Shown piece after piece: positions 7,353-9,559 of a stretch of 64,000 bases of DNA (position 1 is the stretch's first letter; every line of letters begins with the position of its first letter). The DNA is from Shigella phage CM8. The notes under the pieces are model-generated. The model worked only from the letters and a program-made list of their open reading frames with translations. It ran no database searches and was not told where the DNA came from. The position numbers and the translations under genes were made by a program. Location of the stretch: sequence record MK962750; one strand, 5' to 3'.

Positions 7353-7436
7353 TTTAGTTTCCATTTGAGTGTTTGTTTTGATAGGGTAATAGTATCACTA
7401 CTAAAACCCAATGTAAACAACTTTGTGAAAAATTTA
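7353..7436 (-). promoter_or_regulatory. promoter-in-hairpin element upstream of the 74-aa internal-protein-like gene
   Basis: Same repeated core plus ctttgtgaaa; -35 GTTTACA, 17-nt spacer, extended -10 TGaTACTAT on the minus strand. Confidence 0.6.
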
Positions 7437-7724
7437 TTACAAAAGATTTTTAGCAATAATCTTGAGATGTGCCGCAGAAATGTGTTTAGCTTTAAACAAC
7501 GCAGTTTCTTCAGCAGGAGAGATAACGATTGTAGCACCATCCTTTTTAGCAGACCACCCATCGCCTAGGTAAACAGTACCTTTGATTTCTTCGCCATCAA
7601 CCAGACTAATCATTGGTTTACCTTCTCGTCCTTTATTTGCTTTAATAACTTCAGAAGTAAGAGTAGCTTCGGTAATAGTAGAAACCGGGGTAGTTGTAGA
7701 AGTAAATTCTTTGAAAGTTTTCAT
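7437..7724 (-). CDS. ipI: internal protein I-like (95 aa), copy 1
   Basis: [19 protein letters not shown]|ATL...: cleavage after the 19-aa targeting sequence at I-T-E would leave 76 aa, matching the recalled size of mature IPI*; sits next to 57B as in T4. Confidence 0.6.
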   Translation of the reverse strand: MKTFKEFTSTTTPVSTITEATLTSEVIKANKGREGKPMISLVDGEEIKGTVYLGDGWSAKKDGATIVISPAEETALFKAKHISAAHLKIIAKNLL

Positions 7725-7796
7725 TTTATTTTCCTAATTAATTTTGATAGGGTAATAGTATCACAACTAAAACCCTATGTAAACAACTTTGTGAAA
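7725..7796 (-). promoter_or_regulatory. promoter-in-hairpin element upstream of ipI-like copy 1
   Basis: Inverted repeat atagggt / accctat bracketing the spacer and -10; then AGGAAA-N5-ATG. Confidence 0.6.
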
Positions 7797-8054
7797 TTAT
7801 TTTAAATCTTCTAATCGTTTCTTCATCTTAGAACCGTTCTTAGCGATTTCGCCTGCATCAGAGCATAATGCTAAAAGCGCTTTAACTTTAGTTTGGTCTC
7901 CTTTAAAAGATGAAGGATCAACAGCAGCAGCAAGTTCTTTAATACGAGAGAAAAGACGCTCAGCTTCAGCTAAAGCCATTCCAAGCTTTACTTCCATACC
8001 GCGGGAAGATTCAGTAATAGTAGTTTTTGTAGCAAACTCTTTGAAAGTTTTCAT
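7797..8054 (-). CDS. internal protein-like small protein (85 aa) with capsid targeting sequence, copy 1
   Basis: MKTFKEFATKTTITE... with I-T-E and L-A-E sites; preceded by a promoter-in-hairpin element. Confidence 0.6.
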   Translation of the reverse strand: MKTFKEFATKTTITESSRGMEVKLGMALAEAERLFSRIKELAAAVDPSSFKGDQTKVKALLALCSDAGEIAKNGSKMKKRLEDLK

Positions 8055-8126
8055 TTTATTTTCCTAATTAATTTTGATGAGGTAATAGTATCACTACCTC
8101 ATCAGTATGTAAACAACTTTGTGAAA
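8055..8126 (-). promoter_or_regulatory. promoter-in-hairpin element, variant with 9-bp stem
   Basis: gatgaggta ... tacctcatc perfect inverted repeat around the -10; same -35 core. Confidence 0.6.
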
Positions 8127-8339
8127 TTATTTTAAATCGTCTGCCCAATCAACTTTAAGAGGTTCTTTATATTCACGATCTAATACGACCGGAATTTGTA
8201 CATCACCGCTAAATGATAAGGGCCCAACATTATAAGACAATGTTATATGCGGTGTGTAATCATCAAAATCGTGTGTAGCACCTAGTGCCCGCGCATACAT
8301 ATGTCGACAGCGCAGATATTCAGAATCTAGCACAAGTAC
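8127..8339 (-). pseudogene. truncated duplicate of the 3' part of gene 57B
   Basis: Identical to the last 70 codons of 57B ([20 protein letters not shown]...DWADDLK); homology stops at the duplication junction 8339/8340; no native start. Confidence 0.7.
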
Positions 8340-8410
8340 TGAGTGTTTGTTTTGATAGGGTAATAGTATCACTACTAAAACCCAATGTAAACAACTTTGT
8401 GAAAAATTTA
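8340..8410 (-). promoter_or_regulatory. promoter-in-hairpin element (copy of 7353..7436 type)
   Basis: Lies at the duplication junction. Confidence 0.55.
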
Positions 8411-8698
8411 TTACAATAGTATTCTATCATTAATCTTAAAATGTGCCGCAGAAATGTGTTTAGCTTTAAACAACGCAGTTTCTTCAGCAGGAGAGATAAC
8501 GATTGTAGCACCATCCTTTTTAGCAGACCACCCATCGCCTAGGTAAACAGTACCTTTGATTTCTTCGCCATCAACCAGACTAATCATTGGTTTACCTTCT
8601 CGTCCTTTATTTGCTTTAATAACTTCAGAAGTAAGAGTAGCTTCGGTAATAGTAGAAACCGGGGTAGTTGTAGAAGTAAATTCTTTGAAAGTTTTCAT
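8411..8698 (-). CDS. ipI: internal protein I-like (95 aa), copy 2
   Basis: Identical to 7437..7724 except the C-terminus ([12 protein letters not shown] versus AAHLKIIAKNLL). Confidence 0.6.
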
Positions 8699-8770
8699 TT
8701 TATTTTCCTAATTAATTTTGATAGGGTAATAGTATCACAACTAAAACCCTATGTAAACAACTTTGTGAAA
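8699..8770 (-). promoter_or_regulatory. promoter-in-hairpin element upstream of ipI-like copy 2
   Basis: Identical to 7725..7796. Confidence 0.6.
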
Positions 8771-9028
8771 TTATTTTAAATCTTCTAATCGTTTCTTCAT
8801 CTTAGAACCGTTCTTAGCGATTTCGCCTGCATCAGAGCATAATGCTAAAAGCGCTTTAACTTTAGTTTGGTCTCCTTTAAAAGATGAAGGATCAACAGCA
8901 GCAGCAAGTTCTTTAATACGAGAGAAAAGACGCTCAGCTTCAGCTAAAGCCATTCCAAGCTTTACTTCCATACCGCGGGAAGATTCAGTAATAGTAGTTT
9001 TTGTAGCAAACTCTTTGAAAGTTTTCAT
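8771..9028 (-). CDS. internal protein-like small protein (85 aa), copy 2
   Basis: Protein identical to 7797..8054. Confidence 0.6.
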   Translation of the reverse strand: MKTFKEFATKTTITESSRGMEVKLGMALAEAERLFSRIKELAAAVDPSSFKGDQTKVKALLALCSDAGEIAKNGSKMKKRLEDLK

Positions 9029-9100
9029 TTTATTTTCCTAATTAATTTTGATGAGGTAATAGTATCACTACCTCATCAGTATGTAAACAACTTTGTGAAA
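9029..9100 (-). promoter_or_regulatory. promoter-in-hairpin element, 9-bp stem variant, copy 2
   Basis: Identical to 8055..8126. Confidence 0.6.
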
Positions 9101-9559
9101 TTATTTTAAATCGTCTGCCCAATCAACTTTAAGAGGTTCTTTATATTCACGATCTAATACGACCGGAATTTGTACATCACCGCTAAATGATAAGGGCCCA
9201 ACATTATAAGACAATGTTATATGCGGTGTGTAATCATCAAAATCGTGTGTAGCACCTAGTGCCCGCGCATACATATGTCGACAGCGCAGATATTCAGAAT
9301 CTAGCACAAGTACAAGAGTCGATCCATCTTGTGTTTTCCACACTTCTAAATGTCCAGAAGAAGCTACTTCAAAACTTCCACTCGATGGAACATACGGAAC
9401 ATTTACTCTTGAATAACATATAGTTGAATGAATTTTTTCTCTAGGAACTGGATTAGGAACACGTAAAGAGCGCTGGAGTTCTTCCAGCGCGTCAAGTGTT
9501 AATTCTGAAAACTTAGCTGCTACATAAAGACCCGTTGAAAAGTCTTTAAATTCCATCAT
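9101..9559 (-). CDS. 57B: gp57B
   Basis: 152 aa, in the conserved 57B-57A-1-3-2-4 order. Confidence 0.75.

Follow-up and report, generated by a model that had tools for sequence, protein, structure and literature searches.

The 64,000-nucleotide stretch of Shigella phage CM8 analysed here (GenBank MK962750), referred to as the window, contains a 974-bp direct tandem repeat spanning the internal-protein genes ipI and Ip5 and the 3' end of gene 57B (acb1). As judged from finished sequence records, this repeat is very probably an overlap between contig ends that was left untrimmed when the genome was finished, and not a feature of the phage. The first-pass annotation had favoured a genuine duplication, by which the dose of injected proteins would be doubled, and kept an assembly artefact as its fallback. 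Four observations reverse that order, namely the corresponding defects in sister genomes, the lack of microhomology at the join, the position of the breakpoints outside the promoter/stem-loop repeats and the absence of the join from the other sequences searched; they support the fallback and leave the dose-doubling duplication unsupported.

To define the repeat, the window was compared with itself without gaps at an offset of 974. The two units lie head to tail (Table 1) and match at 966 of 974 positions. Self-BLAST put the identity at 99.18% across the 974 nt, 8 positions being mismatched and none gapped. Outside these limits the match level was that of background at once, base 7365 differing from 8339 and base 8340 from 9314. 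The layout is thus an exact A-U-U-B tandem with a unit of 974 bp, arbitrary breakpoints and no microhomology, and it is the sole long near-exact repeat within the window. Tandem Repeats Finder, whose longest period of 500 is below 974, found none in the window. Each unit holds the final 213 bp of 57B together with Ip5, ipI and their early promoter/stem-loop (PeSL) spacers. On all of this the first-pass annotation was right: it had recognized two near-identical 974-bp tandem units, derived the period from correct open reading frame (ORF) coordinates, and assigned to each unit ipI, another capsid-targeted gene and 213 bp from the 3' end of 57B, with the right copy leading into intact 57B (9101..9559). 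Its 85-aa capsid-targeted gene is indeed present in both units and can now be named as Ip5, and its 57B, likewise present by its 3' 213 bp in each unit, can be identified as Acb1.

CM8 (MK962750 / NC_054939.1, 167,247 bp) came from chicken meat, with E. coli BL21 as the host used for isolation, and its MiSeq 2x250 reads were assembled with MIRA v4.0.2, after which Artemis was used to view and edit the genomes of that study (PMC6832132). An untrimmed overlap predicts the same defect in other genomes from this pipeline. Four sister genomes of the same paper (JK38, JK23, JK16 and JK55), produced with the same sequencing, assembler and editing, were therefore examined, and 4/4 were found to contain one private, perfect tandem duplication each (Table 1). 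In JK38, JK16 and JK55, each scanned over its whole genome, the repeat was the only one of its kind.

The repeats of JK38 and JK23 both fall inside gene 37, the essential gene for the long tail fibre. Neither repeat length is a multiple of 3, and in both records the gene is split into two annotated coding sequences. When one copy was deleted, an intact gene 37 ORF was obtained, of 1253 aa in JK38 and 981 aa in JK23. Since a frameshift in gene 37 would prevent the formation of tail fibres, these two repeats cannot be real. The JK38 join, like that of CM8, is without microhomology. The repeats of JK16 and JK55 are located in gene-poor stretches and are single-copy in the closest relatives. For JK55, the 662-bp repeat may alternatively be a true terminal repeat that was joined upon re-orientation.

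What CM8 and the four sister records have in common is a private head-to-tail repeat of 0.2-1 kb, placed at an arbitrary site in a re-oriented record. They differ in two respects. The sister repeats are 100% identical, whereas the CM8 copies differ at 8 clustered bases, and the repeats of JK38 and JK23 break gene 37, whereas that of CM8 falls on small accessory genes and plausible ORFs remain. Its position on short accessory genes, which were left with tidy ORFs, is the reason why the CM8 repeat went unnoticed.

The starts of the records are informative with respect to how they were finished. The first base is base 1 of rIIA in JK38, JK23 and JK55, and base 1 of the primase gene in JK16. As each record opens exactly with a gene that had been picked for the purpose, the contigs had been cut and re-joined by hand. 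At ipI, the window is offset from JK38 by ~63.85 kb, which fits bases 64,001-128,000 of an rIIA-oriented CM8 record.

MIRA leaves overlapping contig ends. Applied to CM8, with its circularly permuted genome of the T4 type, this overlap-layout assembler would have given one linear contig with its ends, situated at the site of the repeat, overlapping by 974 bp. When the origin was reset to rIIA, the contig would have been cut and its old ends joined without trimming of the overlap, so that the two copies would come to lie head to tail inside the record. The left and right units, referred to as copy L and copy R, would then represent opposite ends of the original contig. The real locus would be single-copy, with the order 57A-57B(acb1)-Ip5-ipI-74-aa internal-protein (IP) gene-trna.4 and an early promoter/stem-loop spacer after each cassette.

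The differences between the two copies were considered separately. All 8 mismatches lie at 7443-7466 versus 8417-8440, a patch of 24 nt inside the last 10 codons of ipI, and the other 950 nt of the unit show 0 differences. Under uniform placement, the chance of 8 mismatches being so clustered is ~4e-11. The patch comprises 3 transitions and 5 transversions that result in 5 amino-acid changes, giving the right-copy IPI a unique C-terminal tail in place of AAHLKIIAKNLL and altering otherwise conserved residues, K92 included. In a set of 41 homologues retrieved from 5.8 billion protein clusters, this part of the protein hardly varies and the variant tail occurs in none. The variant IPI (UniRef100_A0A5B9MXD9) is the sole member of its 90%-identity cluster, on one contig, and an exact look-up of the protein in the Logan/ENA gene index returned no entry. 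The best match to the variant-tail DNA among 50,697 phage records was the canonical allele at 89%, and there were zero exact matches in IMG/VR, metagenome contigs or GTDB genomes. Two further origins of the patch were considered. Gene conversion from a known allele, or templated mutation from a nearby quasi-repeat, was unsupported; no template was found in the window (both strands, k-mers, up to 9 mismatches) and no donor in the phage records (E up to 10), IMG/VR, metagenome contigs or GTDB genomes. A hypervariable IPI tail was rejected, HLKIIAKNLL being nearly invariant among close homologues.

The patch sits 78-101 nt from one presumed former contig end, which is less than half a read length. 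The eight differences probably reflect a consensus that had little support where coverage ran low at the end of the contig, in which case the CM8 'IPI variant' is probably a spurious database protein. A second possibility, less likely but still to be reckoned with if the duplication is artefactual, is that the variant tail is a real minority allele in the lysate, and that MIRA, taking the polymorphic columns for a repeat, divided the reads over two 'copies' and so ended the contig beside the patch. MIRA was designed to separate near-identical repeats by a few discriminating bases, and the patch lies within one read length of the join. The sister overlaps, being without mismatches, also indicate that random error at contig ends is not the rule in this data set. 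Against such an allele, no related one was present in any collection searched, a second haplotype differing in only these 24 nt is hard to derive, and the search of the window yielded no sequence from which such a mutation could have been templated. Under either explanation, terminal consensus error or minority variant, the 'variant IPI' and the 'truncated Acb1' would not be real proteins.

Some considerations weigh against an artefact. The eight mismatches are its loose end: the sister overlaps are free of errors and 100% identical and that of CM8 is not, so that an additional assumption is needed, namely an error or a minority variant near the contig end. Ip5 and ipI are also plausible targets for dosage selection, because the products of both are injected and IPI is known for its action against restriction. 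With regard to coverage, the evidence was drawn from finished records, the CM8 scan took in 64 kb of the 167,247-bp record, and the JK23 scan covered bases 1-50,000 and 147,001-168,349.

The rival explanation is a genuine tandem duplication, or 'gene accordion', in which the spacer below ipI was joined illegitimately to the middle of 57B, Ip5 and ipI were thereby duplicated, and the product was kept because either the double dose of injected proteins or a second IPI with a changed C-terminus is of help against a host defence such as a GmrSD-type enzyme. In its favour, both of the injected-protein genes in the unit are complete and have promoters, IPI is known to inhibit restriction (PF11634, PDB 2JUB), and the copies differ, whereas an overlap assembled from the same reads would normally be identical. 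T4 readily forms head-to-tail amplifications under selection, as for dmd-tifA (PMC9391042). The CM8 repeat resembles the T4 segmental amplifications (dmd-tifA versus toxIN, Srikant et al. 2022, PMC9391042; earlier, the Hp17 and rII duplications) in being a short head-to-tail segment with counter-defence genes. Those amplifications were characterized by boundary microhomology, raised read depth, divergent-primer PCR, usually >2 copies and compensating deletions (PMC9391042). Their microhomology is 2-10 bp, typically 6-10 bp, with one copy kept at the join (PMC9391042), compared to 0 nt at the CM8 join.

The sequence of the join was inspected directly. On the minus strand it reads ...AAACACTCA followed without interruption by GTACTTGTG..., which may also be written as ...CAAAACAAACACTCA followed by GTACTTGTGCTAG..., and it connects codon 83 of 57B with unique spacer sequence that lies 13 nt past the promoter/stem-loop below ipI. 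The two sides have no base in common at this point; the 4-nt ACTC nearby is out of register. A search of the collection of 50,697 phage records gave 504 matching records, of which the best-scoring had 272 or 602 bp between the halves of the join, with no contiguous match ranked higher. The join had 0 exact matches in IMG/VR, metagenome contigs and GTDB genomes.

A genuine duplication is accordingly regarded as improbable. Neither its join nor its variant tail was found in any other sequence searched, and 4/4 sister genomes of the same pipeline carry the same kind of repeat, two of which would be lethal if real. True duplicates do not diverge by 8 substitutions in 24 nt and 0 in the other 950 nt. 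In T4 genetics, a 1-kb tandem repeat is lost fast by homologous recombination unless it is continuously selected, which also counts against a stable duplication. The version in which the duplication is real and changes to the last ten codons turned the second ipI into a gene for a new IPI variant is held to be equally improbable. If true, it would be a natural case in which a T4-type phage duplicated a counter-defence gene and later diversified it, perhaps in response to a GmrSD-type enzyme insensitive to IPI*.

Each cassette of the locus is followed by a 45-nt spacer that carries TTTACA-N17-TACTAT, with TG upstream, inside a predicted hairpin (fold z from -1.9 to -4.1). Seven such spacers were found, and their hexamers span 9087-9059, 8757-8729, 8391-8363, 8113-8085, 7783-7755, 7417-7389 and 7123-7095. 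All seven fit the T4/PST-group PeSL consensus, TTTACW-N17-TAYWAT (PMC4122927), and PeSLs have been reported as mediators of modular shuffling (PMC2839356, PMC4122927). The 57B fragment at the end of the left unit, which the first-pass annotation had described as promoterless, has an early-promoter-like element (8391-8363) 24 nt upstream. A repeat family of 123 nt was also noted, at window positions 7690-7812, 8020-8142, 8664-8786 and 8994-9116, which takes in the 12 nt that end the upstream gene, then the promoter/stem-loop and ribosome-binding site, and also the opening codons of the capsid-targeting peptide. Genes 57B and Ip5 both end ...GATTTAAAATAA (DLK, stop), so that the homology between cassettes runs on into the coding sequences upstream.

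The locus thus has seven PeSL-type spacers that are nearly identical, as well as the 123-nt flank repeats, and PeSL-mediated shuffling is on record, but unequal homologous recombination between the PeSL repeats flanking the cassettes can be virtually dismissed as the source of the duplication. Both breakpoints lie outside the repeats: one is 13 nt past a PeSL in unique spacer, and the other is within the coding part of 57B, with 220 nt separating it from the closest PeSL. Had two PeSLs exchanged, the unit would measure 696 bp and contain nothing of 57B. The breakpoint positions refute a PeSL-to-PeSL unequal crossover. They also count against the earlier proposal of a real, dose-doubling duplication that is an intermediate of accessory-gene turnover, the breakpoints being outside the promoter/stem-loop repeats linked to shuffling.

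With one unit removed, as the untrimmed-overlap explanation would have it, the CM8 locus became collinear with that of T4_ev240 (57B-Ip5-ipI-IP74-trna.4, each once). A comparison with T4-like genomes at the ipI-57B junction, which the first-pass annotation had suggested, showed T4_ev240, RB14 and T4 to be single-copy there. The cassettes between 57B and trna.4 were ipI only in T4, Ip5-ipI in RB14, Ip5-ipI-IP74 in T4_ev240 and in CM8, and ipI-Ip6 in JK38. The collapsed CM8 locus is a textbook example of the ipI hyperplastic region (Arbiol et al. 2010, PMC2839356; Comeau et al. 2014, PMC4122927), with a variable string of capsid-targeted IP genes between 57B and trna.4, each followed by a PeSL. 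The 974-bp repeat differs from the products of PeSL-mediated shuffling in that it does not break at PeSL elements.

The 74-aa IP gene, just beyond the repeat, was itself compared with the gene at the same position in JK38. The gene body (window 7108-7329) had no nucleotide match to JK38 Ip6 (70,971-71,204), and both flanks aligned to JK38 at 93-97%. Here one cassette has been replaced by another, as has been described for the ipI hyperplastic region.

All genes of the locus are on the minus strand, with the transcription order 57A, 57B, Ip5, ipI, 57B fragment, Ip5, ipI, 74-aa IP and trna.4 homologue. Intact 57B matched the Pfam Acb1 family PF23474 with an E value of 7.5e-60 over profile positions 1-144, and Acb1 in PDB entry 7T26 with an E value of 1e-61. 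The 57B fragment has no start codon, is missing the gene's initial 246 nt, and covers only positions 75-144 of the 144 in the Acb1 profile, short of full length. The 85-aa protein shares a 90% cluster with proteins named Ip5 (RB14, T6) and is annotated as Ip5 in RB14; its exact sequence has been entered twice for CM8, as QEG04823.1 and QEG04826.1. Based on its family match, the ipI product is predicted to be IPI, the precursor of the GmrSD inhibitor IPI*. It matched PF11634 (IPI_T4) with an E value of 1e-49 over profile positions 1-75 of 76, and the solved IPI* (PDB 2JUB) aligned from residue 20, right after the capsid-targeting peptide ending ITE. The left-copy IPI protein is identical to IPI1_BPT4 and is present on 395 contigs, and at its 3' end the left-copy ipI shares 100% identity with T4_ev240, UFV-AREG1 and TB37, and 98.6% with T4.

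Table 1. Positions of the repeat, its genes and spacers in the CM8 window, and of the tandem repeats in the sister records
Feature	Record	Position	Strand	Evidence or remark
Left unit, copy L	CM8 window	7366..8339	.	offset-974 comparison, self-BLAST
Right unit, copy R, continues into intact 57B	CM8 window	8340..9313	.	offset-974 comparison, self-BLAST
Join between bases 8339 and 8340	CM8 window	8335..8345	.	sequence inspection
24-nt patch with all 8 differences, bases 78-101 of copy R	CM8 window	8417..8440	.	offset-974 comparison
57A	CM8 window	9786-9556	-	ORF
Intact 57B = acb1, anti-CBASS 2H-type phosphodiesterase, 152 aa	CM8 window	9101..9559	-	Pfam PF23474, PDB 7T26
Ip5 internal head protein, 85 aa, right copy	CM8 window	8771..9028	-	phrog_3499, E 1e-48
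ipI, right copy, variant C-terminal tail	CM8 window	8411..8698	-	QEG04825.1 / YP_010075948.1
57B/acb1 3' fragment, last 70 codons and stop	CM8 window	8127..8339	-	identical to 9101-9313
Ip5, left copy, identical to right copy	CM8 window	7797..8054	-	ORF, offset comparison
ipI, left copy, canonical T4 IPI, 95 aa	CM8 window	7437..7724	-	identical to IPI1_BPT4
Third internal-protein gene, 74 aa (MKTYQEF...), just beyond the repeat	CM8 window	7128..7352	-	phrog_8765 internal virion protein, E 2e-25; annotated in T4_ev240
Seven PeSL-type spacers, one after each cassette	CM8 window	7085..9093	-	repeat family, promoter scan, hairpin folds
730-bp perfect repeat, sole such repeat	JK38, MK962755, T4-like, whole genome scanned	155,327-156,786		
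Perfect repeat, period 226 bp	JK23, MK962752, T4-like, 71 kb scanned	156,466-156,918		
Perfect repeat, period 585 bp	JK16, MK962751, Drexlerviridae, 51,854 bp	14,867-16,038		
Perfect 662-bp repeat	JK55, MK962758, Felixounavirus, 86,219 bp	14,390-15,713		

Elsewhere in the window, two endonuclease-like ORFs were found among the tRNA genes, at 4156-4806 (-) and 4983-5615 (-). One is GIY-YIG/NUMOD3 Seg-like (216 aa, Pfam E 6e-6) and the other, of 210 aa, has an HNH-type motif (DHIDGNNKNH...LLCPNCH) with no Pfam match at E <= 0.001. The tRNA set of the window (Arg, Met, Thr, Ser, Gly, Leu) differs from those of T4, RB14 and JK38. Two adjoining paralogous genes for Alt-like ADP-ribosyltransferases (PF03496) are located at 56325-58382 (-; 685 aa) and 58386-60482 (-; 698 aa). 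They show ~71% DNA identity over parts, 2094 bp apart, and the same pair is annotated in JK38.

The repeat is present in both GenBank MK962750 and RefSeq NC_054939.1, and its consequences for the databases are a one-off 'IPI variant' (QEG04825.1 / YP_010075948.1 / UniRef100_A0A5B9MXD9), a truncated Acb1 and a duplicated Ip5. In the JK38 and JK23 records, tail-fibre gene 37 is falsely split. The value of the finding lies in a warning on five GenBank/RefSeq records and on the spurious proteins to which these gave rise, which could mislead the mining of phage genomes for gene accordions, anti-defence gene dosage, receptor-binding proteins and internal-protein diversity. Collapsed to a single unit, the CM8 locus is the well-known variable internal-protein region of the T-even phages.

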